From the IMG/VR virus record IMGVR_UViG_3300028833_000053: a stretch of DNA of 64,000 nt; one strand, 5' to 3'. Under the pieces are notes generated by a model. The model was given only the letters and a program-made list of their open reading frames with translations. It was not told where the DNA came from and did no database searches. The position numbers were made by a program, and so were the translations under genes. This DNA is from a virus (Duplodnaviria; Caudoviricetes). This document shows positions 1,781 to 51,857 of the stretch, piece by piece; the stretch's first letter is position 1, and each line of letters opens with the position of its first letter.

Positions 1781-1951
1781 ATGAAGAAACTAAACATAAC
1801 GAAGGAGCAGTTCAACCGTATCAGCTACTTCCAGAGGAAATACGGCAAACTGGAGTGTGTGTCCGAATCAGGAAGACTGATCAAGACGAACAAAGGCAAG
1901 GTTCTGATGTTCAAGGAATCCACCAGAAAGTTCAGAAGGAAATTTGCCTGA
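1781..1951 (+). CDS. 56-aa MKKLNIT-leader family protein (leader only, no cargo domain)
   Basis: MKKLNITKEQFNRISYFQRKYGKLECVSESGRLIKTNKGKVLMFKESTRKFRRKFA; GAGG RBS; paralogous to the N-termini at 31391, 33106 and 50973. Confidence 0.8.
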   Translation: MKKLNITKEQFNRISYFQRKYGKLECVSESGRLIKTNKGKVLMFKESTRKFRRKFA

Positions 1952-1989
1952 TAGAATCATATGATTCCATTATTGTTGGATAAACAATC

Positions 1990-2019
1990 AAATGGACTGG
2001 ATTTCTCCAGTCCATTTTT
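1990..2019. terminator. Bidirectional intrinsic terminator
   Basis: Perfect 12-bp stem AAATGGACTGGA-TTTC-TCCAGTCCATTT with T-run, between convergent genes. Confidence 0.8.
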
Positions 2020-2022
2020 GCT

Positions 2023-2916: not shown

Positions 2917-2922
2917 ATGAAC

Positions 2923-2961
2923 TATTTACCATCTTAATTTGAAGTCCCTTTTTTGTAAATA
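2923..2961. promoter_or_regulatory. Divergent pair of putative late promoters (GTAAATA)
   Basis: TATTTAC at 2923-2929 and GTAAATA at 2955-2961 between divergent genes; resembles the T4 late -10 box TATAAATA. Confidence 0.65.
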
Positions 2962-3001
2962 CAATGTGAGATTGAAAACACCAAACAGAAGGTGAAACAA
3001 C

Positions 3002-4369
3002 ATGGCAGTTAACAACGATAAGCACAAAAGACCACCACCAAGACCTTATGGTCTTCCACCTCCGCCACCCCCGATGTATGGATACCCTCCGATACCGGGA
3101 ACCTATGGCGTGTATCCCTATCCCGGTGGATATGGAATTCCGCCCCCGCCTGCTCCAGAGCCACCACCTCATGTGCAGGAACCCCAGGAACAAGAGGATT
3201 TGACCCCACCCGATCCAACTCCAACATATGACAACAACGTGGTTGCAACGCAATCTTGGGTGAAGTCCATGTTGAACAAGTTCAGGGATTGGACGAAGTT
3301 CTTTGCCACCGAGCAGCTTGAGGTTGGTGGAACGATAAACGCAGGAAGGTTGAAGACGGTTGACCTTCAGACAAACGACATCTATGCTTCAAGGCTCACG
3401 TTGCTTGACCCCAACGGACGTCCGGCGCAAGTATACATTGACGAAAAGGGCAACCTTCAAATCAACTACGACTTCCAGGACGTGTTCATCTATCCCGGAC
3501 TTGGCGACGTGGAAATCAAGAGGTATGTGTACAGATATGGTTTCTTGCCTGAGCAGATTGCGTCCAACTTTGTTGGACTTACGCCATATCAGACACTTGC
3601 AAACTTCGTTCCCTATGACGCGACCGAGGCGAAGAAGTTCAACGACAAGATTTGCTTCAAGTTTTGCGAGGCGGATGGACGTGACGTTCTCATTGACAAG
3701 ACGATGCTCTTTATGTGCAACCAGACAAAGAGGATTGTTGGAATTGACGTTTGGGACGAGTACGGGGAGCTTATCCCACAGAAGTGCATTGTCCTGCCAA
3801 CCGACAAGGTTTACAGGAAGGTGACGTTGAACATGCCCAGCTTCATAAACGACATTCCTTTCCCATGTCCGCATAACCACGAGCATTGCCCCGAGCATGA
3901 CAAGACGCATGAGCAGGAACACGAGGCTGTTGCGCATAGTGAAGATGGAACTTGTGGCGAGACGCAAGATGGAAACTTGCATCCTGGACATGTCACAACC
4001 GGACACATCCATCATGGAATTGCCCGCGTGATTCTTCCTGGCGACTATCCAATGTCGGCAAGTGGCGATGAATGGGAGGCGTTCCAGCCGCCATACTTGA
4101 ATCCTTGCAGGCCGTCCTATTTGTGGCATCCTTCCCCGTTTGTACCACCGATGCCACCTCATCCATATCCTCACTTGACACATGACATCTACGAGGATTA
4201 CGGTGGGTTGACTTGCGAGGCGTTCAACAAGCCCTTGAACATAGAACCTGGCTACAAGGTTGTGTATGAGGACTATGAGACGAACACCTATTACAACATC
4301 TGCTTGAAGAGAAGCTATTTCCTTTAGAACAAAAAACAGTTCATTGCAATCAAGACGGCAGATGCCTAA
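3002..4369 (+). CDS. Hypothetical Pro/His-rich late (probably virion) protein
   Basis: Track ORF 3002-4327 extended through TAG 4325-4327 (QNKKQFIAIKTADA) to TAA 4367-4369, followed by a terminator. Confidence 0.75.
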
Positions 4370-4397
4370 TGGGTTTGTGTAGATTGAAAAACAAAAG

Positions 4398-4429
4398 AAG
4401 GTCCGACATTTGTCGGACCTTTTGCTTTT
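4398..4429. terminator. Bidirectional intrinsic terminator
   Basis: AAGGTCCGAC-ATTT-GTCGGACCTT stem flanked by A- and T-runs between convergent genes. Confidence 0.8.
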
Positions 4430-4443
4430 ATATGGAAAAGCAA

Positions 4444-6531: not shown

Positions 6532-6563
6532 GTCTGGTGATACCTTTCAGATTTCTCAAACGT

Positions 6564-6637
6564 TATTTACCATTCAGAGGATTTTTACGAGATTTTTGTA
6601 AAACGCATACAAGTTTTTGAACATATTTGCGTAAATA
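6564..6637. promoter_or_regulatory. Divergent putative late promoters for gp6 and the gp22-gp23 operon
   Basis: TATTTAC at 6564-6570 and GTAAATA at 6631-6637. Confidence 0.65.
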
Positions 6638-6670
6638 TAGATAGTATCTAAAAAGAAAGTTGGTTATTCA

Positions 6671-7717
6671 ATGAAAGTCTCTGAAACAACGCAAAAGATA
6701 TATGATGGGATTTCAACCATTCTCAAGGAGAATGGGCAACCCTTGACAAAGGCTCAGGCGTATGCCATTGAAAGCCTTGTTGAGACGGTTGAGGAATCCA
6801 CGGAGAAGAGGTGCTGCGAAGTGACCGAGCAGATTTTGGCGAAGAAGGATCAATTGGTGAAGGAAGCCGAGAGCAAGGTTACGGACAATGTTGTTTCCGA
6901 GGCTACGATTGAAAAAGTCAACGCGATGGTGGAAAGCAGGATTGAGCAGTTGAAGAAGGAAATCCCCCAGGTGCTGGACTATGCGAGGATGAAGAAGCTG
7001 GAGGGCTGCGTGGAAACCATCAAGGAATGCGTTGGATACAGGGCTGACGAGCAGGTTGAAAAGGTGGCGAACGAAAGCGCGAAAATGCTGAAGTCCACCA
7101 AGACCCTGATTGAGACGCAGGCAAAGCAGATTTCTGAGAAGGTTGCATCGTTGAACGAGAGTACAAAGAAGATTGACGAACTGGAGAAGAAGGTCAAGCA
7201 GATGCAAATGACGATAGATGCGAAGGAAAAACAGATAGTTGAAAGCACGAAGAAGAACCTGGAGTTGGTAAAGGACGTTCAGGGGCTTCAGAAGAAAGTT
7301 GAAGAGAGCAAGAAGGTAAACGAGACGATTGAGGAAAAGAGGAAAAACGAAGCGTTGAAGTTCTATTTGGAACAGAAGATAGCAAGTTATCCGAAGTACG
7401 AGGCAACTCTTCTCAGAAAACATTTTCAAAACGCAAGGTCGCGGGCCGAGATAGATGAGAACTTCCAAAAGGTGCTGTCCATGGTACAGGAGAAAAGGGA
7501 CGCAATGAGGACGGTCCAGGCGATTCCGGTGGCGAAAGTCAACGTGAATGAAACGACCAAGAAAGAACAGATTTCAGGTGAAACTATTGTCGGAGAAAGT
7601 GGTGGTTCCGAACAGGAAGTGTCTGGCTCAATGCTGGATGATTCGTTCGTGGACATTGATATGGACAATGACGTAATCAGCAACGAACAGATGCAGAACT
7701 GGATGGACCGTCTCTGA
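6671..7717 (+). CDS. gp22: Prohead core scaffold protein, T4 gp22-like
   Basis: Charged coiled-coil protein directly upstream of the major capsid gene, with many hydrophobic-x-E-S/A/T sites (VEES, ANES, LNES, IVES). Confidence 0.7.
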   Translation: MKVSETTQKIYDGISTILKENGQPLTKAQAYAIESLVETVEESTEKRCCEVTEQILAKKDQLVKEAESKVTDNVVSEATIEKVNAMVESRIEQLKKEIPQVLDYARMKKLEGCVETIKECVGYRADEQVEKVANESAKMLKSTKTLIETQAKQISEKVASLNESTKKIDELEKKVKQMQMTIDAKEKQIVESTKKNLELVKDVQGLQKKVEESKKVNETIEEKRKNEALKFYLEQKIASYPKYEATLLRKHFQNARSRAEIDENFQKVLSMVQEKRDAMRTVQAIPVAKVNVNETTKKEQISGETIVGESGGSEQEVSGSMLDDSFVDIDMDNDVISNEQMQNWMDRL

Positions 7718-7758: not shown

Positions 7759-9366
7759 ATGTTTAAGACAAACTCAGATTATCAGAAGAAGCTGCTCAAG
7801 CGTTGGGCGCCGATTCTTGAAAAGGGTGCGCCAATTGAGAGCGTCGAGAAGAAGCTCGTGGTTGCGCAGTGCCTTGAGAACACCCGCAAGGAGTTCTGCA
7901 AGAAGGGTCTCTTCACGGAGGCCGCTCCTTCCAACACGAACAACCTCGATGCACGTCATCCTACCTACAATGCTCCTATTTCTGGTCAGGGCGTGTTGAC
8001 GGCGAACGACTACATCCTTCCTAACGTTGTGATGCCTATGCTCCGCCGTATTTTCCCAACCCTCATGGCTCACGAACTCGTCGGAGTCCAGGCGATGACC
8101 GGTCCTACGGGACTTGTCATGGCTCTTCGTGCAGTTGCTGCTAACCCAGAGCGCGTTGGTCTTCCTCAGGGATATGAATTCGGCTACGGCAACAAGGGTC
8201 GTGCCAACCAGAGCATCTTCACGGGCGACGTCGCATCCAAGACCGCAGTGAAGGGTTATGGCAATAACGATGAGGAGAAGGAAGCCAACCTCATGAACAA
8301 GCTCTACAGAGAGAATGGTCCGCTTGATGAAATCGGCGCGTTCTTGAATGGTCAGTATGGTTCTCAGTCTGGCCGTGGCGTTGCTACGGGCAATGGCGAG
8401 GGCTTTGCAAGGGGAACCGATGGCACTTACACTGGCATTGATGGTAAAGATTATCCTTATGGAAATGGAGCTGGTGGTTATGCCAAGGGTTATGCCGGCG
8501 CTTCTGGCGACATTGACCCAACCTTCGGTCACTGGAGGAACAACACGTATCCTCAGGCTACCATCAAGTTCGAGAAGCGTCTGGTCGCCGCCGAGACCCG
8601 TAAGCTGGGTTCCGAGTGGACACCAGAGGACGCCGAGGACTTGGAGGCAATGCAGGGTATTGACCTTGAGACGGAGATGACCAACCTCATTTCCTATCAG
8701 ATTGGCGCTGAAATCGACCAGCAGATCAAGGAGTCCATGATTCTCGCCGCTTGGAAGGACAGCAAGGTTCTTGACGTTTCCAAGCTCGATGGTCTTGACC
8801 AGATGGGCCGTATCGCCGCGATGTTGACCTTCGTGACCCGTGAGGCTAACGAGATCTCCATCAAGACCCGCCGTGGCGCAGGTAACTTCGTTCTTGCTTC
8901 CACAACGGTCTGCTCTTGCTTGCAGCAGCTTGGCACATCCAAGCTCGTCAGCGATGGCAAGACGATGCCTTCTGTTCCTGCTTCCGCAATCGGAGCAATG
9001 ACGAAGGAAGGTCTCATCAACGATGGCCGTCAGTTGCTCGTCCGCGACACCAACACGTTCGGTTCCTACGCCCTCGTTGGCTACAAGGGAACTCACGCCG
9101 GTGACAGTGGTATCATCTACTGCCCATACATCCCTGTGACCCTCTACAAGGCTATCAAGCCTGAGAACGGCCTCAGCGTGATTGGCGCACGTACCCGCTA
9201 TGGCTTGGTTGACAACCCATACGATGCTGAGAACTTCTATTCTCTCATCAAGTTCACGGGCTTCGACCAGGGTTACAGCCTTGGAAACTCCAACCGCACC
9301 TTCTTCGGTGACGCGACGGATTCTTCCGACTCTAACTTCAGCCACCGTAGTGGTCTCATTGGCTAA
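7759..9366 (+). CDS. gp23: Major capsid protein, T4 gp23-like
   Basis: KRWAPILE...LEN propeptide, probable cleavage at FTE/AAP, PMLRRIFPTLMAHELVGVQAMTGPTGL, TRKL..EWT.E..EDL.AMQGID, TRRGAGNF, YCPYIP, RTRYG; strong codon bias. Confidence 0.97.
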   Translation: MFKTNSDYQKKLLKRWAPILEKGAPIESVEKKLVVAQCLENTRKEFCKKGLFTEAAPSNTNNLDARHPTYNAPISGQGVLTANDYILPNVVMPMLRRIFPTLMAHELVGVQAMTGPTGLVMALRAVAANPERVGLPQGYEFGYGNKGRANQSIFTGDVASKTAVKGYGNNDEEKEANLMNKLYRENGPLDEIGAFLNGQYGSQSGRGVATGNGEGFARGTDGTYTGIDGKDYPYGNGAGGYAKGYAGASGDIDPTFGHWRNNTYPQATIKFEKRLVAAETRKLGSEWTPEDAEDLEAMQGIDLETEMTNLISYQIGAEIDQQIKESMILAAWKDSKVLDVSKLDGLDQMGRIAAMLTFVTREANEISIKTRRGAGNFVLASTTVCSCLQQLGTSKLVSDGKTMPSVPASAIGAMTKEGLINDGRQLLVRDTNTFGSYALVGYKGTHAGDSGIIYCPYIPVTLYKAIKPENGLSVIGARTRYGLVDNPYDAENFYSLIKFTGFDQGYSLGNSNRTFFGDATDSSDSNFSHRSGLIG

Positions 9367-9753: not shown

Positions 9754-9765
9754 TCTTTTCTCCTA

Positions 9766-31337: not shown

Positions 31338-31390
31338 TTCATCTTTGTAAATACATTCATAGGCAACCAATTTACGAAGGTGAAACAACT

Positions 31391-31882
31391 ATGAAGAAAC
31401 TGAATATCACGAAGGAGCGTTTCGAGAAGTCGCGCTATTTTTAGAGGAAGTATGGGAATCTTGAATATGTTTCCGAAAGTGGAAAGCTGTTCAAGACAAA
31501 CAAGGGCAAGGTCTTGAAGTTCAATGAGGCCGTCCATCCACATGAGACCGACGTTGATGTTCCTGTGACAGACCAGGAGAAAACTCTGTGTCAGTACATT
31601 GGAGATGAAATTGAAGGGGAATTTAACGATACAACGGGTTTGGAATTGACATGTGGTTGCAACTGGCACAATCCTGGAGAAGAGCAGCATATTGAAATTT
31701 TTGTTGGCATTCCTGAAGAGGATGATTCATCCGATCCAAAATATGACAACATCGAGACGTTCTTGGAGCAGTTTGTCAATGGAATCGGAGACGCCGAGAA
31801 CGAGGGCGAGAAGTGGGGAGATGCCAGTTTCCAGTGGATAAGCGACAATGAACTGTTTGGCGAATTGTGGCCGATTAAGTAA
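31391..31882 (+). CDS. MKKLNIT-leader family protein with acidic cargo domain (TAG=Gln at codon 18)
   Basis: MKKLNITKERFEKSRYF(Q)RKYGNLEYVSESGKLFKTNKGKVLKFNEA...; GTAAATA at 31347-31353. Confidence 0.85.
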
Positions 31883-33004: not shown

Positions 33005-33105
33005 AAGCAATTTTGTAAATAATATTTGAATTGAACATATTCAATGACTAGTCACAGAGGATTGTTCAAGGACGTTAACAAACAACTCTATAGAGGAATA
33101 CTGAA

Positions 33106-33840
33106 ATGAAGAAACTGAACATTACGAAGAAGCAGTACGATGAGAGCAAGTATTTCAACAACAAGTACGGTGCGCTCAAGTTTGTTTCTGAGAGCGGCAA
33201 GCTCTACAAGACCGACAAGGGCGTTGTTCTCGCTCTTGAGGGAACCGAAGAGGAAGTCCCCCCAAAGGAGGTCACCGAGGACGAGGACGAGCCTGGAAAA
33301 GGTGAGGGCGAAGAGGAAGTCACGGTCAAGAAGGAAGACCTGGCTAATGCTCTTCAGGGCGTGATTGATACCGTCAAGGACATCGCCGCCGAAAACGACG
33401 TTGAACTTCCCGAAGAGGAGCAGGACGACGGCGAAGGAGAGGGCGAGGATGACGATGATGAGATCGACCTTGAGTTCGATGAGGGCAACGAGGAAGTCTG
33501 CCCAACCTGCGGTGCTGCCATGAAGAAAGAATGCGGTGGTGTCAAGGAGTGCTCTGGTGCCGGTTGCGTCAAGAAGGAGTGTGGCAAGCCTGGTTTGAAG
33601 GCCGAGTCCGCCCGTATGCGCCGTGCAAAGATGGTGCGTGAGTCCCTGCTCCGCCGTGCCCGTGCGAAGAAGATTCGCGAGTCCATTGAGCGTCGTCGCC
33701 GTGCAAGGAAGGTTCTTGAGTCCATCCGCCGCCGTCGTGCAGCGAAGAAGGTTCTTGAGTCCGCCCGCAAGCGCCGTATTGCCAAGAAGGTGATGGAGTC
33801 ACGCAAGCTTCGCGCCCGCCGCGCCGGCCTGAGAAAGTAA
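33106..33840 (+). CDS. MKKLNIT-leader family protein with acidic middle and Arg-rich repeats (probable head core protein)
   Basis: Leader, D/E tract, KKECG repeats, then ES..RRR.A.K[VI].ES repeats; capsid-like codon bias; GTAAATA at 33015-33021. Confidence 0.85.
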   Translation: MKKLNITKKQYDESKYFNNKYGALKFVSESGKLYKTDKGVVLALEGTEEEVPPKEVTEDEDEPGKGEGEEEVTVKKEDLANALQGVIDTVKDIAAENDVELPEEEQDDGEGEGEDDDDEIDLEFDEGNEEVCPTCGAAMKKECGGVKECSGAGCVKKECGKPGLKAESARMRRAKMVRESLLRRARAKKIRESIERRRRARKVLESIRRRRAAKKVLESARKRRIAKKVMESRKLRARRAGLRK

Positions 33841-34442: not shown

Positions 34443-35525
34443 ATGATTAGTTCATCAGAATTCGTATCACAAGGACATCCCGACAGGACGTGCGACAGCG
34501 TTGCGTCCTATATCTTGGATGAGTATTTGAGGCATGACCCCAAGACAAGGTTTGCACTTGAAATCCAGATGAAAGACCAGGTGTGCAACTTGGCTGGCGA
34601 GGTTACGTCCAAGTGGCTTCCCGGAAGACTTGAGATTGAGGATATGGTCAGGTGCGCAATCCGCAAGGTTGGCTATACTTCTGAGTATGCGTCAAATTGG
34701 CCCGATGGAGCAACGCTGAACGCAGACAAGGTTGTTGTGAACAACTTCATCGGACAGCAATCTCCCAACATTGCACAGGGCGTTGACCGAGAGGGCTGGG
34801 GCGACCAGGGTTGCTTCATGGGCATGGCCACCAACGAGAAGAAGTTTTTCTGTATGCCAATGGACAAGTACCTTGCCAACAGGATTGGCAAGCATCTTTA
34901 CACCGTTGCGAAATCAGGACTTATGTACATTGGTCTTGACATCAAGGTTCTTGTCTCCATCAAGAATGAAAACGAGGTTGAGCAGGTCATTGTGGCTGCT
35001 CCCATGCTTCCAGAGCATGAAACGGATATGGTGAAGTACATCAAAAACGTTGTCAACAACATTCTTTCGGAGTGTGGCTTGACATGTGATGAAATCATTG
35101 TCAATGGAACTGGCTCTTACGTCATCCATTCCACGGTTGGTGACGCTGGCGTTGTTGGAAGGAAACTGGCAGTTGACTTCTATGGTCTGAATTGCCCTAT
35201 CGGTGGCGGTACTACATGGGGCAAGGACGGTACCAAGGCGGACGTCACGTTGAATCTCGCCGCCAGGTACTACGCCCTGCAGGAGATTTTGAGGAATCCC
35301 GACAACAAGGCAATCTACACCAAGCTTGCCTGCTGCATTGGACAGAGCAAGTGCCTTGTTTCGTTCTTCAACGAAAACCACGAAGTTTACAAGGAGGAGC
35401 AGAAGGACATTCTCCCGTCCGAGATTACTCGCAAGTTTGGACTTGATGGCTCCGTTCCAGGAATGTATTGGTCTCTCTGCCAAAACGGATTGTTCCACTA
35501 CGTTGACGAACTTGCTTTGAAGTGA
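34443..35525 (+). CDS. metK: S-adenosylmethionine synthetase
   Basis: SEFVSQGHPD, QQSPNIAQGV, GWGDQG, GDAGVVGRKL.VD.YG, GGG...GKD.TKAD. Confidence 0.95.
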   Translation: MISSSEFVSQGHPDRTCDSVASYILDEYLRHDPKTRFALEIQMKDQVCNLAGEVTSKWLPGRLEIEDMVRCAIRKVGYTSEYASNWPDGATLNADKVVVNNFIGQQSPNIAQGVDREGWGDQGCFMGMATNEKKFFCMPMDKYLANRIGKHLYTVAKSGLMYIGLDIKVLVSIKNENEVEQVIVAAPMLPEHETDMVKYIKNVVNNILSECGLTCDEIIVNGTGSYVIHSTVGDAGVVGRKLAVDFYGLNCPIGGGTTWGKDGTKADVTLNLAARYYALQEILRNPDNKAIYTKLACCIGQSKCLVSFFNENHEVYKEEQKDILPSEITRKFGLDGSVPGMYWSLCQNGLFHYVDELALK

Positions 35526-35546
35526 TAAATGGTAAATACCATTATC

Positions 35547-38500: not shown

Positions 38501-41500
38501 GATTGCAAAGTACGAAAAGACGATAAAGTGGACGTATTAGGAACCCGGTTCGGATTCCGAAGCCCGTGTTTTGAGTGGAAACAGGCTTCCGGTGTTCTTT
38601 GACATGGAACAGTCGGCCAACGTCCTGGCTCTTGCTTCTTGGTATATGATACCATATATTGACACGGATGGCATAGTCCATGTTGACTCCAATGGCGAGC
38701 AGTTGAACGTGGTGTGCTGCTCCAAGAATCCGATGCACATAATCTCCTTGGAGCGCACAAGCATGAATCCATCGGAGTATTGCTTGGGCGAGTATTCCAG
38801 TGAGACCTCTTTGAACAACACGGACGTCTACCTCAATTGGTTGTTTGACTCCTACCAGTATTGTCAAGCCAATGGCGCGTTGATGATTCCCTTGTATTCA
38901 TTTGACTGCACGGATGAAGAGGGAAGCGATTACCACCAATATGCCAATTTGAGGGTGTTCTTGGTTCCCGCCCAGGAGTTGAAGGGCGACACGCACGTTG
39001 TGAACGACAGGTTGGTTCAGTTGAAGGATATGTGCGTTGACTTGAACCAGCAGGTTGATTTCAACGATACGGACAAGAAATACAGGTTCGACTATCCGAT
39101 AAAGGTTTGCCGCAACACGCGCATGGTGTTCTCTGCCTATGACCGAAACGGCTCAAACAGGATGAAATGCGCGTTCCTTGGCGTGTTTGACGCGAATAAG
39201 GAACATTATCTCGGAAACAACTATGCCAACACTTCTTGCAAGGTAAGTTCTTGCATGGCGAAGACGAGGTACGAGTACGATTCACAGTCAACAGTTGACC
39301 TTGGATTGACGAAGGGAAGATACTACCTGGAAAACATTGATTCAGATCCAAGCCAGTATGGGGATGACAAGGATACGTATCTTGACAAGTATGTTGCCAA
39401 GGAGTGCTTCAATTCCTACGATTCCAACGACAAGTACGTGTTTGTGCTGGATTTCGACCCATCCATAGACCACAAGAGCATGTTTGACATTTCCTGGAAA
39501 ACGGGACTTTCAACATACACCTACAACATATTGGGTGACGCCGGCTACATTCCACATTTTGCCTACCAGTCATTGATACGCTACAGGGCCGATGACAAAG
39601 ACGCCGGAGTTGCATATACTTGGAAGAACTCCTACACCGAAAGCAAAGACCACATGCAGTTTGAGTTGTTGGGACTTGACGACAAGGCACTTCCGTTGAC
39701 ATATGAAGCCATAAGCAAACTTGTGGTTGAGGACTTGACAGACGAATGCAGTACCTTGCTTTGCCCGGCAAAGCTCATGGATGACATCTACCGCATTTGG
39801 TGCGAGACAAGGGACGTTAAAACCAGATTGTATTTCCCCCAGTACGGAGAATACCAAAACCATTTCCACAATGAATTTGTGGACTATCCCAACCCGGAAG
39901 TCAGCTTTGGATTTGACTTGAAAGACGAGATTGAGGAAAATGGTGTCAAGGTAAAACCCTGTGGCAAGGGAATTACGGTCATGGAGGTGGTGAATCCACT
40001 TGACGAAAATTACCAATACAAGGACAAGGGTTGGGGCAGCAAAACCAAGGTCATAGATTGGGATGTTTCTGAGACAGTTGGCTTGCGAGACGATAATGGG
40101 AATCCGGTTTTGCAAAAAGACAGCCGTGGAGAACCGTTGATGTTCAACAAGACCACAGGAAAGATAATCCACAAGGCATCCGGCGAAGACCATTATGAGG
40201 ACGACTTTGGCGTTGCAGTCGATCCAACGGAAGTTGAAAACAACTATGAAACGCGCCCTGTTGACATTGGCTTGTTTGAACTTGACCTGCCCCAAAGCGA
40301 ACAGGGGATAGACGAGGATGATACTCTGACTGCCGCGCAAAAGGCGCAAAGAAAGCTTGACGCTTTCAAGAAGTTGCTTGACGAATACTATGTATACGTT
40401 GTGAGGACCGAAAACGGCAACATATTGAACGAGAAGAGGTACATTCTCCCGCCGACAAGGATTTCGGAGTTCATCTTGGGAATGGGCGACCGCGATGGAT
40501 TCATGAAATGCAGTCTCAGTCCATACCAAACGCCAATCATACAAGACGAGCATTTTGTCAATACACAGGTTGTGTTTGCCGGAACGCCCAATCCGTTCTC
40601 ATACGACTTGAATGGAAACAGGATATACTCGAAGCCGGAGGAGTTGCAATATGGAAATTCCTTGGCTGGAGTTGATTCCATAGAGTTGAAGATTGACATA
40701 GTTGGGTTTGTTGACGAAGAGACGTTGAAGTACGACGACACTGGCAATCCAATTATGACAACGGACAAGGAGCCGTATGAACCAGATTGGCCCGTGTACA
40801 TGACTTCCACGCGCAAGTTCCTCAAGCCAACTTTGCGTTTTGTCAAGAACATGCCAAGCGGTGAAAGGTTGATAGACAAGGTTCAATGGAACACGAACTT
40901 GGTTCCGGATGGGGAAGTCACGGTGATGTTCTCCCACAAGAACCTTGACAACTTGGCGAAGTACCACATAATGAACAGACAGTCAAACCTGTACTTTGAT
41001 GGTTCGTTGCCCAAGAATTCCGAACACAAGAACCAATACAAGTTCTCGGACTTCAAGTACAGCGAATCCGTGATGATATACAAGGAGGGTGACAAGTGGA
41101 AGTCGATTGAGACGGATTCCGAGAACAACCCCATATTGGAGTTTGTGATGGATGACGTTGGTTCGGAAGGTGGAAGTACGTCGGATAACCTTCCTCCATA
41201 CTATGTTGAGGTGGAGAAAGAGACTGGGACGGAGAAGTGGTATATTGAACAGGACAGGCTTGTTCCAGATCAAGTGAAGACGAAGCAATTTAACGGTGGA
41301 ACGTATGTTGAAGATACCGAACACTCTGGAAAAGAGAAGTTTGTGGGCGGCGACAAGCACAAGATAGAATCCATTTGCAATCCAGACCTCAATCCAACTG
41401 ACATGATATGCCATGTTGGTAGAATAGGGAACACCATAATATACGATGTTCCAAAGCCCGGTGATGTCAACAACAACCCGTCCGACCAAGGCAATGAAAC

Positions 41501-44500
41501 AAAATGGGAAGGTGGGTTCCGCTGGGCACATAAGGTGAAGTCGGAGCCCGAGAAGTATCTTGACTACTTCTACATTGCGAACGGTGGCTTGGCGTTCAAG
41601 GTCAGCGAAGAGTCATATTCCTTCGCGGAAGCCATGTCAAGGATACCTCCTTTCTACATTGACTTTGTTACAAGAAACAAGCTCCAGGACTTGAACAACA
41701 TCCAGGTGTTGAAGGAATATTCCACGTTCATCCACCAAAGCGAGAATCCCGACAAGGTGAAGGAATGCGGTAACTTCAATCCCCTGATTGTGGATGCCAT
41801 ATTGAGGTATGGCGTTGAGCAGAGGGAATTGAGCAGACTCAAGAGAGACGGCCAGGGGATTCCGATATTGAACGGAAGTGGGGAATACATATACATTGAC
41901 GATGACAACAACATGGTTAAATATGATGCATCGGGGAACGCCATCAACCCATTGTCTGTGAAGGTCATATGCACGGAACCCTATTCAGGAGATTGGGATC
42001 GGCACATACCGACATATATGCCATACACAGGTTTCTCCAGTGTCAAGCCCGGCACTGTGGCGTCTTCCGTCAATCAAAGGCTCATAGAGTTGAACAACAC
42101 GTCTGGAACAAGCACGTTGCTTCTTCAGTTGGATGATGGCGAGATTGACGACTATCTGAGAATATACACCAACTACGTCAGAGTTGACGATGAATATGGT
42201 GATTACCACTACGACCTGTACTTCAACATACAAAATCTCTTCAATTCTCCGTTCGAGTACATTTCCACCGTGACCGGACAACCCAACGTCCTCATATTGA
42301 AGGATTCCTACCTTTATCTCACGGGTGACAAGTTCACGAAAGTCCAGGACGGGGCCACTGGAACATGGCACAACGAGATAGACGATGACAAGGTTGCCGC
42401 GATAAAGGAAGGTGGGGAACTCACGATCTATGGTCAGGTGAAGACATATTCTGGCGAGAAGTTGAGTGATGTCCAAACCATAAAGTTGTTCACTTACAAG
42501 ATTCACAACATATCCGACGACAAGCCGAAGTTCCTCATAGAGAAGACCTATGACATAACGAAGTCCACGTTGCAAGGGAACGTCACGAAGAACATCAACA
42601 TAGAGTTTTCCGACGTTTTGTGGACGTTGGACGAGGTGGATTTTGAAATAAAGGACAACAAGGACAACAAGTTCAAGGAGTTGAAGAATGACGTAACAGT
42701 TGTACAGCCCGTGAAGTTGCGCTACAACTGGGACAGAGAGGACGACTTCAGGATAAAGTCAATTTCCTTTGACCTCGTGAACGATGTCATAGACTTCAAC
42801 TAGGTTCCGAAGTTGTGTGAATATTGGGTTCAGGACAGGACTTTGCGCGACAAGACAAGTGACGGGAAGAACTACCCATACTATGACCATTGGAGCGACA
42901 AGTACATGAAGTTGGAAGTGGATGACATCACCTAGATTCCAAGAATGACCTTGATGTACGATGAACTCAACGGACACAATTTCGAGACAATCTATCTGAG
43001 GTGGAAACTTCCAGCGGGTTGCCGCATAATGGACACGATTGACCGGCTTGGTGGATATGTGTTCAGTTCCACCGCCGCGAACATAATGGCTGATTGCAAC
43101 AGCAGCAGAACAACGCCAAAGTTCAACGTCACCTTGGGTCATGTTGTTGTTCGCGTACATGAACCATAGAAAGACGGGGAACGTGGAAAGATGTATTTGG
43201 GAATGGAGCATTCCTCCACAAGGAGGCAGAATGGCTATGTATTGAAAGGATTGGCCGAAAGCATTGAAGCCGCGTTCAACCTCAATCCAAATACGTATGG
43301 GGCAGCCGCGAATCCGACCTTTGAGGACGCAAGTGGCACATACAAGGACAGGAACAACTAGACGCACAATGTAAGCACAACGCATGTTGCAGTTCCAGAA
43401 ATAGAGATAGAAGATGCGGTTCTCAGTGCCTCGTCAGGGGAATCCAACAAGCAGCACTCGATTATGCTCAACGCGAATGGCGGAACGATTGGTGGAAAGT
43501 CCCGTGTTGTGAAGGTGTTTGCCCATGGTCAGTTGTTTGGAAACTTTGTGCCTGACACTTGGGGCAGGAACATATTTGATGGATGGTACAACACAAAGGG
43601 AGTTCAAATAACTCCCGAAACGCCAATCAACTCCTCCGATACGTTGTATGCACGTTGGAAGATGGCAGAGTGCATAGTGACGTTCAAGATGAACGTAACC
43701 GGTGACATCACAGACAATGGATATATCAATGGGGACAAGGTTGTTGTTACACAGTCCTTTGACAGTGAAACGGGCGAAATGAAGAAGAAGTACCCTCACG
43801 GAACCAAGGTGGGTGAACTTCCAACGTTCTCCGCGTCTGGCGAGTGGAGTGCCTGCACACCAAATGGCTGGTGGACCGACAGCATCAATGGAGACCAAGT
43901 TGGGTCAGACAAGAGCATTGAGGACGATGTAACGTTCTATGCGCACTTGACTGGGAAGACCACCATCAAGCGCGTGAACAACAGTACTGGAAATAGATAG
44001 GACGTGACAATTGTGCGCGATGGCCGTGAACATTTGATAGCCTCGAACTTTGCACCAAACGTCTATTTGATGTCAACGGACAAACTTGACTTTGCAAAGG
44101 ACTTTGAACTTGTTGTTTGCGGTGTAACGGGTGGAAATATAACCAACAACCAAGAAATCTTTGGTATGACTGACGGCACGGCGCACGGTGGCGTTCCTCC
44201 GTATACGCATTCCGAACTTGAACTTGGCGCATATCAAAACAAGGCTATGTTTGAATTTACGCCTGGTAGAGTTGACACCTATGACGCAATAACGGCAAAT
44301 ACGTTGTATTATTACAAGGTAATCAAGAATGGTGCAAAGCTCTATGGATATCTCAGTAAAGATGGCGTGAATTGGGACTTCCAGAGAGAAGGAACGCCCA
44401 AGACAGTAAATTCCTGGTTTGTTCTTGGTTTTGATTATGATGTCACTTCTGAACAGGAGGACAGTGAATATTGGCGTGGCACGATAGACTTGACGGAATC

Positions 44501-46304
44501 CTACATCAATATTGGCGGTTGCAAGTACGAGTTCATCTTGAACATATTGATGATATTCAACGCCAACACCGGACACTTTGAGGATGGCACCGAAATAATG
44601 CGCGTTGAAAAGGATATGGGAATGTCGTTCAAGTTCCCCAACGCCTACAGGACGGGATACGTGTTGAATGGTTGGTATGACGCTTCCACCGCCGGAACAA
44701 AGATAGGAATACCCGATGGACAGTATATCCCGGACAAGTCACGCACGGTGTTTGCGCATTGGGACCCGATTAGGTACTATGTCAACTACAATGGAAACGG
44801 GAATACATCTGGAACCATGTCGAAGTCCGAGCATTTCTATGACCGTACATTGAACCTTGCGGAAAATGGCTTTGCTAGGACATACACGGTGACGTTCAAC
44901 GCCAATGGCGGTGATTGTTCAACGTCGGAGGTCACGGCAACACGTCCATTCAAGGAATGGAGAACCAATGCCGATGGAACAGGGACGAAGTTGAACAACA
45001 GACATTCTGAAGTTGTCAATTTGACGGCAATCGAAAATGAAACGAAGGAAATCTACGCCCAGTGGAGCAATGCCACAATAACGTTGCCATCCGCTACAAA
45101 GGCAAACCACACATTTTCCGGTTGGTATGATGCATTGACGGAAGGACACAAGATTGGGGACGCTGATGCAACCTATACATATGCGCCAACAGCCAACAGC
45201 ACGTTGTATGCGCATTGGGATATAGTCAAGTATGGCATTACACTCAATGCCAATGGCGGAACCATAAATGGAAAACCCCAGGACGTTGTGCAGTATGGTC
45301 ATGGTTCAGAATTTGGAAATCCATTGCCTGAAAGGGATGGATACGTCTTTGATGGTTGGTATTCAGAAGCCACCGGTGGAACCAGAATAGAGCCTACAAC
45401 AAAGATAACCGAAGCTGGAACGTACTATGCGCATTGGATTGAACAGATAGTTGTGACATTCGACAAGAACACGCCTTACAACGTCTATACGGTAAAGGGT
45501 GATGGAAGTGTCGGAGCATATTATTTCGCAGATGGTATTGTGCCAAAATTGAATGATTGGAACGGCGTTACAAAAGTGATTATGCTAGATGGAATAACCG
45601 AAGTAGGAAGTGGCGCATTTGATTCTTGGCGAAATTATCCGACGCAACCAAAACCAAACTTGCAGGAAGTGGTTTTCCCATCAACACTTAAAATCATCAG
45701 AGAAAATGCTTTCAAGGAATGTGAAAACTTGACAAGTGTGACTATACCGAACAGTGTTACGAGCATCGGGAATTATGCGTTCAGTGGGTGTAAAAAGTTG
45801 ACGAACTTGGTAATTCCTGACAGTGTAACTTATATGGGGGAAGGTGCGTTCAATCTTTGCAGTGGCATTGAAAGTATTACAATAGGCAATGGCATTACCG
45901 AACTTTCCGATCATGTGTTCCATAGTTGTGGCATGATAACCGGAACATTGAACATTCCAGATGGAGTGACTACTATTGGAGTAGCTGCGTTGGCCGGGCT
46001 GGGCGTATCAAGAATAACGTTTGGCAGTGATTTGACAACAATTAAAGATTCGGCGTTTGACTATTGTAGCAATTGCAAGATATTTGATTTTAGAAAGGTG
46101 AAAACTGTTCCGTCCTATCTAAATGAGTCTTGCTTATTCTATAGAATACCAGACGATAAGAAGATTATAGTTCCCGATGAGTTGTATGATTCTTGGAGAA
46201 GTACAGAACCCTGGAACGCAACAACAGATTATTGGGATGGTAAGATACATAATCACCAACAATGCATCGTCAAGGCAAGTGAATCTTCACTTGGGAGTTT
46301 ATAA
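35547..46304 (+). CDS. Giant 3585-aa virion protein with C-terminal InlB B-type repeats and BspA-type leucine-rich repeats (11 TAG=Gln)
   Basis: Eight track ORFs share one frame, broken only by TAG at 35571, 35679, 36090, 37944, 38235, 38538, 42801, 42933, 43167, 43359 and 43998. Repeats F.ANGG...F.GWY...LYAHW and L..V.IP.SVTSIG.YAF.GC. GTAAATA at 35532-35538. Confidence 0.85.
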
Positions 46305-46350: not shown

Positions 46351-47301
46351 ATGGAAAAAACAAAAAACATAAACTAGGAGTTGGTTTCAAAGTACAAGGT
46401 TGACAATACCTTGCTTGAATCCTACTTCAAGAACGCGAGGAACCAGGACATCACTGGCGTGGTGTTCCCTCTCCGCGTTGACAACAGACAATACTGCTCT
46501 CCTACGGACTATCAAGCGGACAAGCCATCTTGCTGTGGATATTCCACGGCGCAGATTTTGGAGTCCCTCAACTGGGCCGCAACCGGAAAGGTTGTTCAGT
46601 TTGACGCAGATCAAATCTACGCGAAGTCAAAGGAGACGGACAAGCAAATGGGCATCCAGGGAACTTATCCCGACCTTGCCTTGATGAAGGGGCTTGATCT
46701 CATCCCCAATGGAAACAAGAACTACGTTGTGAAATGCTCAACTTCAAAAGACGTGGCCGAATTGAAGCGCGTGATTCACCAGAACATGTTTGCGTCCGTG
46801 AACCTCATGGTCACTGACGACATCTATGGTTTGGACAGTTCCAATTTCGTGTACCAGGGCACTGGAAAGACTGTTGGCGGACATTCCATGGTGTGTTGTG
46901 GATATGATGAAAACTCCAAGGTGTTCATCATGCAGAACCACTGGGGAACCGAATGGGGATTGAAGGGATTTTTCCTCTGTCCTTATGACGTTTGGGAGAA
47001 ACAGAGCAACATCATTTGTTGGTATGAGAAGGTGGAAGCATCTTCAATCAAGCCAGAAGTCCGTGAGGTTGTGAAGGAGGTTGTAAAGGAAGTGGTGAAG
47101 GAAGTTGTGGTGGAGGCGAAACCAGAGCCAAAGAAGGAAGAGGTGAAGCCGGAACCAAAAAAGTCCGAACCAAAAAAGCCGCTGCACCCAAAGCAGGAGC
47201 CAAAAAAGGAAGAGGTGAAGCCGGAACCCCCAAAGGAAGAGCCAAAAAAAGAAGAACCTCCAAAAGAGGAACTTCCGAAGGAAGAACCGAAGAAGGAGTG
47301 A
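46351..47301 (+). CDS. Papain-like C1 cysteine peptidase with E/P/K-rich tail (TAG=Gln at codon 9)
   Basis: Q....SC, GGHSMVCCGYD, QNHWGTEWGLKGFF; GAGG RBS before ATG 46351; TAG at 46375-46377. Confidence 0.88.
47062..47298 (+). repeat. Coding low-complexity repeats (EVVK)n and (EPKKEE)n
   Basis: REVVKEVVKEVVKEVV followed by about seven imperfect EPKKEE units. Confidence 0.8.
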
Positions 47302-47310
47302 TTCACGAAT

Positions 47311-47356
47311 TGCAATGACTGGTTGAATCGTGGGTTCATTCAACCAGTTGTTGCAT
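47311..47356. terminator. Long hairpin, possible terminator or processing site
   Basis: TGCAATGACTGGTTGAAT...ATTCAACCAGTTGTTGCA. Confidence 0.55.
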
Positions 47357-47420
47357 GGAAACCGTTGGTGATTTAGTAAATAGTACTGCAATTTGAATAT
47401 CATACGAAGGTAAAACGAAC

Positions 47421-50400
47421 ATGAGAATAATTATTGACAAGGACATTGCTGAAGTCCAGCTTCTTCAGGAAGCCTACGAGAAGGACATGCCAACCTACAA
47501 AGTGAGGGCTGTCAACCAATATGACAAGTTTGTGTACGCAAAGGACTTGAAGAAAATCAACGAGGCTTGCGATGCCGTGTATGACATCGTGTTTGATCCT
47601 GCGTTTGATGATTGCCAACAGGAAATCGTGGAAGTGTGCGAGGGAAAGGAGCGCATCATCTGGTCATCCGACAACAAGACATTGGTACAGGAATCGGTGT
47701 GGCAGGAAGCTGAGAAAGCCCAGGGTGCTGGAAAGAAAGGTGCGCAACAGAAAAACGCCAAGACCGACTAGAACAAGGGCGGTTTCTGGGACAAGGTGAA
47801 GGGTGCGGCGAAGGCCGTTGGTGGTGCGCTTGGAAAGGCACTTGACGGTCTTAAGAAGGGACTTAACATTGTCGGAGCCATGACAAAGCAGTTCTCCAAG
47901 GACATGCTTACCAAGTGGAGAAACGCAGGTTACTTCAACAAGGAAGGACGCATTACGGGACTTGGTTACAAGGTGATGATTGGCGAGGTTGAGAATACGG
48001 TCCCCGTTGAAACTGAGGACAAGACAAATGACATTACCCAGGCATGGAAGGTTGCACAGTCCAATGTGGTGAATGCCCTTAAGAAGCAGGGCTTTACGAT
48101 AAATGGTGAAGTTCAGGCGATTGTGAAGAACGATAAAGACCCCATTACTCTTTCAGCGGATGTTACCGACAAAGATGGCAATGCCTCTTCAATTGAATTC
48201 AACCAGGATGGAACAATGGTTGATGGCGGCGCGCAGAACGCCCAAAACGCCGATGGTGGAAATGGCGGAGGAAACAATGGAGGCGGTGCCAATGGTGGTG
48301 GCAACGGCGGAGGAAACAATGGCGGAGGAAACAATGGCGGAGGAAACAATGGTGGTGGAAACAATGGTGGAGGTGATGCCGGTGGTGCAGCCAATACCCA
48401 GCAAATAACCCCCGACCAGGCACAGAAGAACCCAAAGGCCGCCCTTGGCAACCTTGCAACCCGTGTGGCAAACCTTGAACAGGCTGTTGGAATAAACGAA
48501 TCCACTTCCTACAATTGGAACTATGACAACCAGGTTAATACGAACCGCCAAGGACTTGAGCGCATGGTCATCAAGAGGTTCTTCAATGACTTGAACGATC
48601 CTGACGTGAAGGAAATCAAGTTTGTTTCAGAATCCGGCAAGGTGAAGGTATATGAAACCGCAAAGGGTTCTGAAGCCTATGCCGAGTTCAAGAAGGACTT
48701 TAGGGAAGCAACCGCAAACGCCACCGGCAAGTTTGCGCAGTACAAGGTGACCGTTGAATCAGGAACGAAGTCAAGGCTCAATGGCTACAAGTTCTCTTCA
48801 TTTGGACTTGACGACGACTTTGATTCCGAAAGCAAGACCATCATATTCAGGGAAAGCGTGAAGAAACTTGTTTCCCCTGATGATACCACTAAAAAAAAAG
48901 TTGAACCAACCAAGGTAAACGAATCCGAAGTCAAGATTCCGGAAGTCCCCAACAACACGGAGACTTGTGGCTTGACTTTGGAGCTTGACAAGAAAGACCC
49001 GCTTGAACAGGTGCAGGCTTTGCTTGCCTCCATGAACAAGTACAATGGAATTGAGAAAAAGACACCCGAGAACTATGACGGAACCATTGACACTGGCGTT
49101 TCCACATATCCAGATGTCCCGACTTTTGAGACACCAAAGAAGCAGGAACCATTGGAGGTTCCCGAACAGAAAACCCCAAAGGTTGAAACTCCGGAAGTTG
49201 TGAAGGAAGCCGAGGGGGACGATGATGGTGGCGGAGACGATGGTGGCGGAGAAGCTGACCCGTTTGGTGGTGGTGACGATGCAGGTGGCGGAGACGACGC
49301 CGGTGGTGGGGATGACCCATTTGGCGGCGGTGCCGATGGGGGTGGTGACGCCGGTGGAGATGCTGGCGGTGACGCAGGGGGAGGAGAAGCTGACCCGTTT
49401 GGGGGTGGTGACGGAGGAGATGCCGGTGGAGACGCAGGCGGAGACATGGGCGGTGACGCAGGTGGTGATGCGGGAGCCGAAGGTGGTGATGAAGCCGCCG
49501 GCGAACCTGCCCCGGAACCAGCCGTGAACACGGACGCACAGGGCAACCCACAGTCCCAATATAACATCAACATTACCGAGCCTTTCAACGCCGAGCAGGA
49601 TTTTACGTTGAACGAGGAAGAGCAAAAGGAGTTCTTTGGGAAGATTGACCAGTTGGTGAAGATTCCAGACATGGACAACTATTCCCTTTACCTCTATCAA
49701 ATAACGCCAGAGAACATGAACCTTGACGATGTTCATTACATCGAGGCTCTTTACCAACTCTCCGTGAAGTTGGGTCTGCTTGAGGACGTTTACGCCGATT
49801 CCAACTTGCTTGAGAAGTACAATTCCTATAAGTATTCCGTTGTGAAGAATGGTGAGGGCGAAGATGCCACGCAGGGTGAGGATGCCTTGACCGTCCAGGA
49901 GCAGAAGACCCCAATTTGGCAGGGCAACAAGGTTCTGTCAGAAGCGAAGGAATCCGAGAAAAAGACCGTCAAGGACGACAACGAAGAGAAGAACAAGGAT
50001 TCCAAGAAAGCGGGAACTTCCGAGAAGGACGATGAACGCCGTGGTGCAAAGGACATGAAACTTGACCTTGACAAGAACGGTGCGCCAAAGCCCGTTGTGA
50101 TTGACACAACGAAGGAAGGTTGGGATTCCCTGAATGGCAAGGAACATGGCAAGTTGGTGGACTCCACGGTTGAGGGCGATTTCCACGGGCTGGGTTGGCT
50201 TGTGACGTTCAAGGCTATGCAATTCGGCTCCCCAAGGTACATGACAATGTACATCAAGAGGAATGGCAACGAAAAGGCCGAGAAGCAGTGCGAAGAATAT
50301 CTCAAGAGACTTTCCTACTCCGAGATTGAGTTTGTGAAGATTGAGGAAATCGACCCATACGAGTACATGTACAGGCAAAGCTGCTCTGGAATGAAGACGC

Positions 50401-50957
50401 CCGAGGAAATCCAACAGGCTTCCGTTGTGAACAAGGACATTCCCTATCTTGAAAGTTCCGAACCGGATTCAGTTCCAAACGACATCAAGAGGGACATCAA
50501 GAAGGTCATAACGAAGCTCAACGCGGAAATCCGCAACACAAAGCAGTTCAACTTCATGAACGAAACTGGCGTGTTCAAGCCGCAGATTGACCCACACGAA
50601 TTCATGATGGGCTACAGGACGGCGAAGGTTGACGAGACCGTTTCGGAAACCACCTACAAGTTCGTGTTCAAGAAGAACGATTCCACGTTCTCCCGCATGT
50701 TCTATTCCAACTTGAAGGAAAAGCTGTTCAAGTACCTTGGCATTTTTGCCCAGAAGTTCGGTCTTGAATGTGGTTGCGAATCTACGCCAAAGGCAATCGT
50801 CATCGACTTCATCAGGTCAGACCTTGGAAATCCTGGATATGACCTTGAAGGAATGGTTGATACTGTGGAGGAACAGCCAGTTGAGACAGACAACAAGGAA
50901 GAGGCGTCCGTTGCGCCAACACTTGACCAGGCTATGGAAATGGCAAAGAAAATTTAA
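47421..50957 (+). CDS. Large multi-segment probable internal head protein (1178 aa, one TAG=Gln)
   Basis: Track ORFs 47421-47771 and 47796-50957 are joined through TAG 47769-47771; many xxE-S/A sites; Gly-rich tracts; GTAAATA at 47376-47382. Confidence 0.8.
48255..48374 (+). repeat. 15-bp coding tandem repeat (GGGNN)n
   Basis: GGCGGAGGAAACAAT units. Confidence 0.85.
49215..49495 (+). repeat. Coding Gly/Asp repeat (GGDA)n with three DPFGGG units
   Basis: GGDDGGGEADPFGGGDDAGGG... Confidence 0.85.
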
Positions 50958-50972
50958 TTGAGGTAAAACCAA

Positions 50973-51857
50973 ATGAAAAAACTTAACATAACGAGAAAAC
51001 ATTACATGGAAAGCAGTTATTTCCAGAGAAAGTACGGAAAGTTGGAGTATGTCTCCGAATCTGGAAAGTTGTTCAAAACAAACAAGGGTAAGGTCTTGAA
51101 GTTCAACGAGTCATCCTATGAAAGCCTGCAGGAGTTCTATGATTGGTTGAATAGAAACACCGAGTTGGACAGCGGAATCCATGTCAGGTATCACGACAAC
51201 GAAGATGGAACTGAATCCCTTGAAATGACGTTTGACGACAGGTTTGCCTGGGGAGACGATGTTGATGATGGAGTCATACCAAAGGAAGAGTCCGAGAATT
51301 ATCAGCATTGGCTTCAAATGTTCAAGTCCAAGGCAAAGGAGAATGGATGGGAATTCAAGAAGGACTATGACGATACCTATGACGAATATGTGCTAATCCT
51401 CATATCTGTTGGTTCACAGAATGATTATGATGAATCAGGTAAGAGGTTTGGCAACAAGTTCGTTGGTGAATCCGATGATGGACGTTGGTCCGAATATGGC
51501 GAGTTCCTGGGTCAGCTTCCAATGGATTGCATCGAGGACTGCTCACACAGTGGCAAGTGCGATTCCGAAGTCGAGTACTGGACAGACCAATTGCAGTTTG
51601 CCGATGGACTTCCCATTGACAAGGCTATTGAGTTCATTGCCGAATATGGCGCGTGGGGCCGTGAGGAACTTTCACAGAAATCCCCAGAGGAAATAGCCCA
51701 AATCGTTCTTTGGATTTTCTGTGGAAACCTGAAGGACGAGGCTTATCAGTTCATGCGCGATGGTGACAGCGAAGACTGGCCCGACCTTGAAGATTGGGAC
51801 GAGAAGGATTGGAGGCGGTTCCAAGAGGAGCAGTGCTTTCTTGGATTGAACAACTGA
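50973..51857 (+). CDS. MKKLNIT-leader family protein with two acidic cargo domains
   Basis: MKKLNITRKHYMESSYFQRKYGKLEYVSESGKLFKTNKGKVLKFNES; internal linker DESGKRFGNKFVGES. Confidence 0.85.
   Translation: MKKLNITRKHYMESSYFQRKYGKLEYVSESGKLFKTNKGKVLKFNESSYESLQEFYDWLNRNTELDSGIHVRYHDNEDGTESLEMTFDDRFAWGDDVDDGVIPKEESENYQHWLQMFKSKAKENGWEFKKDYDDTYDEYVLILISVGSQNDYDESGKRFGNKFVGESDDGRWSEYGEFLGQLPMDCIEDCSHSGKCDSEVEYWTDQLQFADGLPIDKAIEFIAEYGAWGREELSQKSPEEIAQIVLWIFCGNLKDEAYQFMRDGDSEDWPDLEDWDEKDWRRFQEEQCFLGLNN

Follow-up and report, generated by a model that had tools for sequence, protein, structure and literature searches.

A 46-residue protein module, hereafter the leader, opens four dispersed genes in a 64,000 nt stretch of DNA (the window) taken from IMG/VR record IMGVR_UViG_3300028833_000053 (Duplodnaviria; Caudoviricetes), a virus known from sequence only. 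The module begins open reading frames (ORFs) 1781..1951, 33106..33840 and 50973..51857, together with a TAG-interrupted copy that starts at 31391. The copies show 65–83% identity to the first copy, with 25 invariant columns; beyond the module, nothing is common to the four proteins. When a hidden Markov model (HMM) of the leader is run on the six-frame translation of the window, exactly these four copies are recovered (3e-26 to 4e-29). Alignment and HMM thus establish what an initial annotation of the window had reported, namely four dispersed genes that begin with the same module and then diverge. The same annotation proposed that the leader carries unrelated cargo into the phage head, a reading that we have come to favor with some reservation.

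The source of the window is, by its gene content, a very large, uncultured and distant T4-like megaphage with a gp23-type capsid protein. Family-profile matches show that the window also encodes a gp6-like baseplate wedge protein, an endolysin, a family-B DNA polymerase, a clamp loader and topoisomerase II subunits; the polymerase shares just 26% identity with those of the nearest isolated phages. The leader profile brought in 19 IMG/VR loci, including two complete genomes with terminal repeats, G001 (418,068 bp) and G002 (414,060 bp), each of which carries 5 to 9 leader genes. For counts of leaders and tRNAs, and for synteny, G001 was joined from 21 stretches. Nine leader copies are spread across this genome, and its synteny with the window spans the baseplate gene to the topoisomerase gene.

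The four window genes, all on the (+) strand, differ in what follows the leader. Gene 1781..1951 (56 aa) is leader-only: the leader (1781–1918) is followed by a 10-residue, linker-like tail and a TAA/TGA stop, with no cargo, and the heptamer GTAAACA lies upstream at ~1749–1755. We considered whether this gene is a decaying remnant; its leader has three atypical residues (Ile14, Cys26 and Ile34) and an HMM score of 79.6 bits, near that of the other copies. Gene 31391..31882 (163 aa) is preceded by the related heptamer GTAAATA at 31347–31353 and contains an in-frame TAG at 31442–31444, taken as Gln; it is absent from G001, between the polymerase gene and the ortholog of the gene at 31891. Gene 33106..33840 (244 aa; GTAAATA at 33015–33021) encodes a leader of a sub-type ending LALE-G, an acidic spacer, a Cys-rich stretch and an Arg-rich tail, and orthologs lie at the same place in every relative sampled (L014–L017 and L019; also G001). 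Gene 50973..51857 (294 aa) consists of the leader (50973–51110), domain A (~51126–51407), a linker (~51414–51473) and domain B (~51474–51854).

A profile of the four leaders, run against 1.84 billion representative proteins, defines a family of 369 clusters (50% identity) at E<=0.001, and of 353 at E<=1e-10. The match covers residues 1–46 in nearly all of them, in proteins of 62–501 aa. The family is, as first supposed, an unrecognized one: no significant family for the leader was obtained when the four leader proteins and the product of the gene at 47421 (g47421) were searched against Pfam and PHROGs, and when the 50973 protein was compared by tblastn with 50,697 GenBank phage records, its leader had no match (the sole hit, at 7e-3, is weak and falls in cargo domain B). 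The 167 cargo parts examined, of 10–444 residues, form 54 BLAST components, of which 41 are singletons and the biggest is held together by shuffled domains. A leader profile thus uncovers the kind of cargo diversity for which the initial annotation had advised a scan. Pfam recognizes almost nothing in 150 family members besides a few zinc ribbons and stray matches; the cargo of one G002 gene (locus L002) is a BspA-type leucine-rich repeat (LRR; 3.6e-69). While the leader is strongly basic (isoelectric point, pI, 10.1; net charge +9), the cargo is mostly acidic, with a median pI of 4.46 and 74% of parts below pI 5.

Individual loci show the same turnover. Between the gene at 239 (g239) and the endolysin gene, the window holds its cargo-less copy, relative L007 a 265-aa member and G002 an inverted leader-LRR gene, while the G001 locus is empty. 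Between g47421 and the clamp loader gene, each of the window, G001 and G002 carries a distinct cargo. Taken together, these comparisons indicate that cargo is swapped freely behind a constant leader.

Two lines of evidence concern the nature of the leader itself. Firstly, copies within one genome are saturated at synonymous sites (dS 0.8 or more, or incalculable), with nonsynonymous divergence (dN) of 0.03–0.35. This pattern implies that the peptide is kept by purifying selection; recent gene conversion was entertained as the cause of the likeness between copies and rejected, because synonymous sites are saturated within a single genome. Secondly, an AlphaFold2 model built from 150 sequences has a predicted confidence (pLDDT) of ~90 over leader residues 1–44 and a beta-alpha-alpha-beta-beta-beta topology (one strand, two short helices, three strands), and the full-length 50973 model shows an identical leader fold. 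The leader is thus confidently predicted to be a small alpha/beta domain rather than a peptide, which lends weight to the earlier suggestion of a longer, possibly folded targeting domain. A Ser-Glu-Ser-Gly turn is invariant within it.

The predicted fold resembles nothing significantly. Searches with the leader model returned a best E of 0.53 with Foldseek against PDB and a best Z of 3.0 with VIA-align against 48,161 chains; the top rows are half-domains of VOC (glyoxalase/bleomycin-resistance) proteins, whose module is beta-alpha-beta-beta-beta, at E 0.5 or worse, TM ~0.4 and Z <=3.0. An ESM Atlas search with the leader gave no usable match, and the full 50973 model gave no informative match for the cargo domains in PDB or BFVD. 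According to the initial annotation, capsid loading would be undermined if the leader proved to be a domain already known, DNA-binding or otherwise; neither the fold searches nor the family searches made such an assignment.

The end of the leader resembles a protease site. In T4, the head protease gp21 cleaves behind the Glu of L/I-X-E motifs, with scaffold proteins being cleaved at many points (PMC9026906). The statement that the module ends in Glu holds for every one of the 169 family members checked: Glu occupies leader position 45–49 in all of them, and position 46 in 125. At P3, 163 of the 169 have Phe (124), Ala (20) or Val (19), and at P1' 152 have Ser, Gly or Ala. By its residues, then, the leader ends in a gp21-type site, hydrophobic-X-Glu. 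A second element, the linker, occurs 31 times in 29 of 167 members, with the consensus aromatic/hydrophobic-X-Glu, Ser-Thr, KKFG-K/R-KF, X, (Lys)-Glu-Ser; it is hence a basic peptide of ~11 residues with a putative cut motif on both sides. Among the occurrences are the 1781 tail and the segment between the two cargo domains of the 50973 protein, which bears out the earlier remark that the copy without cargo ends in a tail like the 50973 linker. In the model of the 50973 protein there are three confident domains, and pLDDT drops below 50 only at residues 46–48 (the leader/cargo junction) and 148–167 (the linker). In a predicted structure, this is the pattern that a chain made for cutting should show.

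The window and its relatives also contain a T4-type head module, made up of a gp23-like capsid protein, a scaffold-like neighbor and, in the relatives, a gp21-type protease. Gene 7759..9366 (+) encodes a gp23-type major capsid protein (phrog_138, 1.7e-70; T4 gp23 structure 6uzc, 9.5e-35), for which a candidate propeptide cut lies after Glu54 (LFTE, then A). The T4 stretch '...SFLTEAEIGGDHGYN' aligns a few residues beyond this LFTE-A motif; T4 gp23 is cut within its FLTE-AEIG segment, the stretch aligned near the motif. The motif is kept in G001, and the sequences diverge right after it. Directly upstream, gene 6671..7717 (+; GTAAATA at 6631–6637) encodes a protein for which library searches returned no family match, and to which we assign a probable scaffold role because of its position and its helical, charged composition. 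It contains eight hydrophobic-X-Glu-Ser/Ala sites; the G001 ortholog (72% identity) retains six of these in matching positions. The protease gene was seen only in relatives G001 and G002 and was not located in the window, which covers just part of its genome; Peptidase_S77 (T4 gp21) is matched above the Pfam cut-off in both (1.6e-12 and 4.2e-12). The G002 protease also matches the T4 gp21 structure 5JBL at 7.7e-4 and retains the motifs ELEHP and STRGLG, and the protease has two cut-like motifs near its N-terminus.

Measured against shuffled sequence, the cut motif is enriched in the proteins encoded at 1781 (z 5.1), 33106 (z 4.7; eight sites), 6671 (the scaffold-like protein; z 3.8), 47421 (z 2.9) and 50973 (z 2.6). 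The polymerase, helicase, topoisomerases, clamp loader and capsid shell protein show no such excess of the motif. In the 33106 protein, the Arg-rich tail (~33619–33837, +) is built, as is that at L024:14501–15328, of 11–13-residue units that each end in Val/Met-X-Glu before Ser, and this unit structure is present in both the window protein and its G001 ortholog. If cut, the tail would yield short polycationic peptides, fitting a role beside packaged DNA; it is possible that it serves as a precursor of DNA-condensing peptides.

A promoter-like motif connects the leader genes with the head genes. The window contains 21 copies of GTAAATA where 3.95 would be expected (about five-fold over), and these frequently form divergent pairs between genes. 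Copies stand upstream of the scaffold/capsid operon, the baseplate gene, the endolysin gene, a giant ORF, g47421 (at 47376–47382; 50973 belongs to the g47421 operon), 31391 and 33106. The polymerase, helicase and clamp loader genes are preceded by TATAAT rather than by GTAAATA. The same promoter split is found in G001, where GTAAATA falls within 110 nt of five of the nine leader genes, the others being placed directly behind another ORF. GTAAATA is similar to TATAAATA, the late promoter of T4; it appears to represent a second class of promoter alongside the sigma-70-like TATAAT, and likely marks late genes. Examples of the divergent pairs are found at 2923(-)/2955(+), 6564(-)/6631(+), 23475(-)/23509(+) and 25454(-)/25485(+).

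Reading the genes in full requires attention to TAG codons. The TAG at 31442–31444 sits in a column in which copies 1781 and 50973 have Gln (YF-stop-RKYG against YFQRKYG). Similarly, ORFs 47421..47771 and 47796..50957 are in one frame, separated by the TAG at 47769–47771, which aligns to Gln in the 60%-identical G001 ortholog. Among the 33 tRNA genes of the complete relative G001, one has the anticodon CUA (268611–268687); its identity to the other phage tRNAs compared is 0.39–0.53 throughout, which does not indicate the amino acid that it carries. Because homology crosses TAG codons, paralogs and ortholog align them to Gln, and G001 encodes a tRNA(CUA), we conclude that the clade reads TAG as an amino acid, and that this amino acid is most likely Gln. 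It follows that several ORFs called with translation table 11 are too short (g239 would extend to 1747, and the gene at 3002, g3002, to 4369). The 31391 leader copy is thus real, as first annotated, but is intact only when its TAG is read as Gln, a point that had been passed over in silence. Of the 23 leader genes examined, seven contain in-frame TAG codons, as do g47421 and, in G001, the genes for the scaffold and the protease; the replication genes examined have none. Stop codon recoding is known in several gut phage lineages, where it is tied to late genes (bioRxiv 10.1101/2021.08.26.457843; PMC9523058). A further in-frame TAG lies at window position 1646–1648.

The leader can also lie within a chain. 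In L003:2482–3552 (+), two complete leaders stand 173 codons apart in one open frame, in the order leader-cargo-leader-linker-cargo; the leader is therefore also used inside polyproteins. Two G001 leaders sit behind in-frame upstream segments of 181 and 305 residues, which close with a cut-like motif, and an independent cluster representative shows one of these arrangements again. The internal copy claimed for the 47421 protein fared differently. Gene 47421..50957 (+), read through the TAG at 47769–47771, encodes a 1178-codon late protein with 13 protease-like sites, and its leader-like match (48615–48668) covers 16 positions (HMM 24–39) at a domain E of 0.0086. The motif in question, KFVSESGKV, is replaced by KFIRPDGTF in the 60%-identical G001 ortholog, and for want of conservation there we do not count this stretch as a working copy of the leader.

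Other N-termini and chains are worth recording here. The N-terminus of the 47421 protein (window 47421–47475) is a stretch of 17 residues that ends LLQE and is conserved in G001, and in G001 a leaderless protein with cargo domain B has an N-terminal stretch (L004:2048–2100) that ends TIKE. Short N-termini of this kind, ending hydrophobic-X-Glu before Ala/Ser, could be T4-style short targeting peptides used beside the 46-residue domain. Also in G001, L042:13378–15048 (-) encodes 556 residues comprising a ParB-like domain, a cut-like motif, the leader, a cargo, a linker and a zinc-ribbon-like cargo. The ParB-like nuclease match is weak (ParBc_2, 6.8e-4, below the cut-off), and the first eight residues of the chain are loosely similar to the start of the leader.

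The explanation that we think rather more probable than its competitors taken together is that the leader is a prohead-targeting domain joined to protease-cut linkers, a longer and folded variant of the T4 capsid-targeting system. Under this explanation, a self-folding basic leader would direct whatever is fused to it into an assembling T4-type prohead, probably by binding the acidic scaffolding core. A gp21-family head protease would then cut after the Glu at the leader end (mostly F-K/N-E before S, G or A), and the same protease would cut both sides of the basic linker (ES-T-KKFG-K/R-KF-x-E-S) placed between cargo domains. The cargo, mostly acidic, would be freed inside the head as separate proteins and would later enter the cell with the DNA; the 33106 member would instead release short arginine-rich peptides suited to neutralizing packaged DNA. 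Core binding, cleavage, packaging and injection are all steps that we infer, and the capsid-loading reading rests entirely on sequence logic and T4 precedent. Every sequence-level prediction of this reading that could be tested came out as expected.

Several observations weigh against loading into the capsid. The cut motif is short and degenerate, which leaves its enrichment suggestive. Leader genes are dispersed over the genome, distant from the protease gene, and the G001 homolog of window cargo domain B is encoded by a neighboring gene, without a leader. At least 60 residues precede the leader in 11 of 150 representatives (~7%), and three of the loci studied likewise have it internally, behind a different domain or a second leader, an arrangement with no T4 precedent. 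The T4 capsid-targeting sequence (CTS) is an N-terminal peptide of ~10 residues, where the leader has 46 residues and a predicted fold; no relation between the two is detectable, and the leader proteins have no counterpart among the families of PHROGs or Pfam. As profiles cannot detect a 10-residue CTS, the absence of a recognizable relation is all that this comparison shows. Finally, GTAAATA also lies upstream of a topoisomerase gene, and late timing is for this reason not proven: of the earlier description of the leader genes as late-type units, what stands is that leader and head genes have GTAAATA/GTAAACA in common.

The main rival holds that the leader is an adaptor domain for some other common partner (nucleic acid, a protein of the host, or a compartment or import machinery of the phage), and that its cargo consists of polymorphic effectors acting inside the infected cell, with the capsid uninvolved. 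A folded, position-independent domain is what one would expect of an adaptor, its basic character (pI 10.1, +9) would suit nucleic-acid binding, the dispersal of the leader genes outside the head cluster is in keeping with it, and the evidence for cutting consists of a three-residue motif. Against this, the leader is similar to no fold on record, whether nucleic-acid-binding or not (best Foldseek E 0.53, best Z 3.0), and an adaptor explains neither the promoter-like motif that leader and head genes share nor the cut-site features: the invariant Glu and small residue at the junction, the motif-flanked linker, and the Arg-rich tail with a motif at every unit. Because the junction, linker and tail motifs stay unexplained, we rate this rival lower, and regard it as unlikely. 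The contrast between a basic leader and acidic cargo (median pI 4.46; 74% below pI 5) invites a different suggestion, in which the basic mini-domain is itself the product, an abundant internal DNA-neutralizing protein cut from many precursors, and the acidic parts are discarded charge-masking pro-regions. A cargo-less copy (1781) does exist, and acidic core fragments of T4 leave the head after cleavage (PMC9026906). Yet the cargo consists of domains that are folded with confidence, conserved and shuffled, a BspA-type LRR (3.6e-69) among them; a single gene would suffice for a DNA-binding protein; and the invariant VSE-SG within the leader itself fits the cut motif. This suggestion strikes us as distinctly improbable.

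More doubtful still is a role as a tag read by an enzyme that modifies or degrades the attached proteins and thereby governs their fate, such as the leader of a ribosomally synthesized and post-translationally modified peptide (RiPP) or a degron. A constant leader on many bodies follows the logic of leader-guided maturation, and the Ser-Glu-Ser-Gly turn is invariant. No candidate for a dedicated maturase was found beside the four window loci, whose neighbors are the polymerase, endolysin, g47421 and clamp loader genes, and the cargo, at 10–444 residues and folded where modeled, includes in the 50973 protein and the G002 LRR folded domains rather than short core peptides; we give this role very little credence. 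The least credible account, to which we attach next to no weight, is that the repeat is a relic of DNA-level recombination or duplication with no function of its own. Multiple copies could indeed promote cargo exchange by recombination, but synonymous sites are saturated while the peptide is still 65–90% identical, and the domain is conserved over 369 clusters.

Capsid loading by way of a leader is not a new concept. T-even internal proteins have only the capsid-targeting sequence in common (PMC3012670), and T4 itself, with IPI, IPII, IPIII, Alt, the CTS and gp21, likewise places a constant leader on unrelated, fast-changing proteins. There, too, the leader ends hydrophobic-X-Glu, the capsid protein is of the gp23 type, the protease (here seen in relatives) is of the gp21 family, and the internal-protein genes are scattered and vary between related phages (PMC3012670, PMC9026906). 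Unlike the T4 CTS, the megaphage leader is sometimes internal or duplicated in one chain; a dedicated basic linker, strung between several cargo domains, is added; and the leader family, with its 369 clusters, is far larger than that of T4. Nor is leader length alone unprecedented, because the propeptides of giant phages, of 79–127 residues, are thought to act as targeting sequences (PMC5694885). These are the propeptides of inner-head and ejection proteins of phiKZ, 201phi2-1 and SPN3US, proposed to be CTS-like and cut by gp175/gp245. In this group, cutting takes place after Glu (S/A-X-E) at several sites per propeptide, and paralog families differ in size (PMC5694885, PMC9026906). Megaphage leaders of the LALE-G sub-type fit the A-X-E rule. 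The phiKZ inner-head family had no Pfam match in five window proteins or 150 family members. Moreover, the phiKZ-group propeptides belong to paralogous whole proteins, whereas the leader is a portable domain on unrelated cargo, and PMC5694885 describes no folded domain used in this manner.

Two more distant systems invite comparison. Bacterial polymorphic effector and toxin systems combine a constant N-terminal trafficking domain with a variable C-terminal module, and share with the megaphage system a delivery domain with swappable, fast-evolving cargo at fixed loci; the megaphage system differs in its phage virion context, in having no known immunity genes and in bearing no known trafficking-domain relation. 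In adenovirus, the precursor of the core peptide mu is cut by the viral protease inside the capsid. By analogy only, the Arg-rich units of the 33106 protein and its G001 ortholog, bounded by protease-like sites, could yield DNA-condensing peptides; the virus and protease are unrelated, and the megaphage case is known from sequence alone.

A bolder statement of prohead targeting is that the leader represents a new class of loading device, in which a self-folding domain, usable at any position in a chain rather than as an N-terminal peptide, combines with a dedicated basic linker bounded by protease sites to produce mix-and-match polyproteins, drawn from hundreds of small effectors, that TAG-recoded megaphages would assemble, pack and inject. 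An Arg-rich polyprotein whose peptides condense the genome of more than 400 kb would be delivered in the same way. We advance this tentatively, as something that may well turn out otherwise. If prohead targeting is correct, a folded portable domain can accomplish capsid targeting inside polyproteins, which widens the T4 model, and the leader becomes a sequence handle that lists what uncultured megaphages probably carry in with their DNA. Such a list already exceeds 350 cargo types, nearly all of unassigned function, and would be rich ground for anti-defense proteins. The leader and linker could also become tools for packaging foreign proteins into phage heads, and the Arg-rich polyprotein would suggest a route to charge neutralization for a genome of more than 400 kb in its capsid.

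Some further genes of the window deserve mention. Region 35529–46304 (+) is a 3,591-codon frame broken by 11 TAG codons only, with GTAAATA at 35532–35538. Homology to G001 is continuous at residues 6–1460 and 1614–2583, crossing six TAGs without interruption, and the C-terminal ~250 residues are a domain that is repeated at several places in G001; the region reads as a giant late protein, or as two or three of them. Between this ORF and g47421, 46381–47301 (+) encodes a papain-like peptidase (phrog_16701, 6.3e-11) with C-terminal repeats of the PEPKKEE type. The endolysin gene is flanked by two genes for late-type proteins with no family match, 239–1747 (+) and 3002–4369 (+), which have long proline-rich ends, C-terminal in g239 and N-terminal in g3002. 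The product of 34443–35525 (+) looks by eye like an S-adenosylmethionine synthetase, with a GHPD motif near the N-terminus, and is 68–72% identical in relatives.

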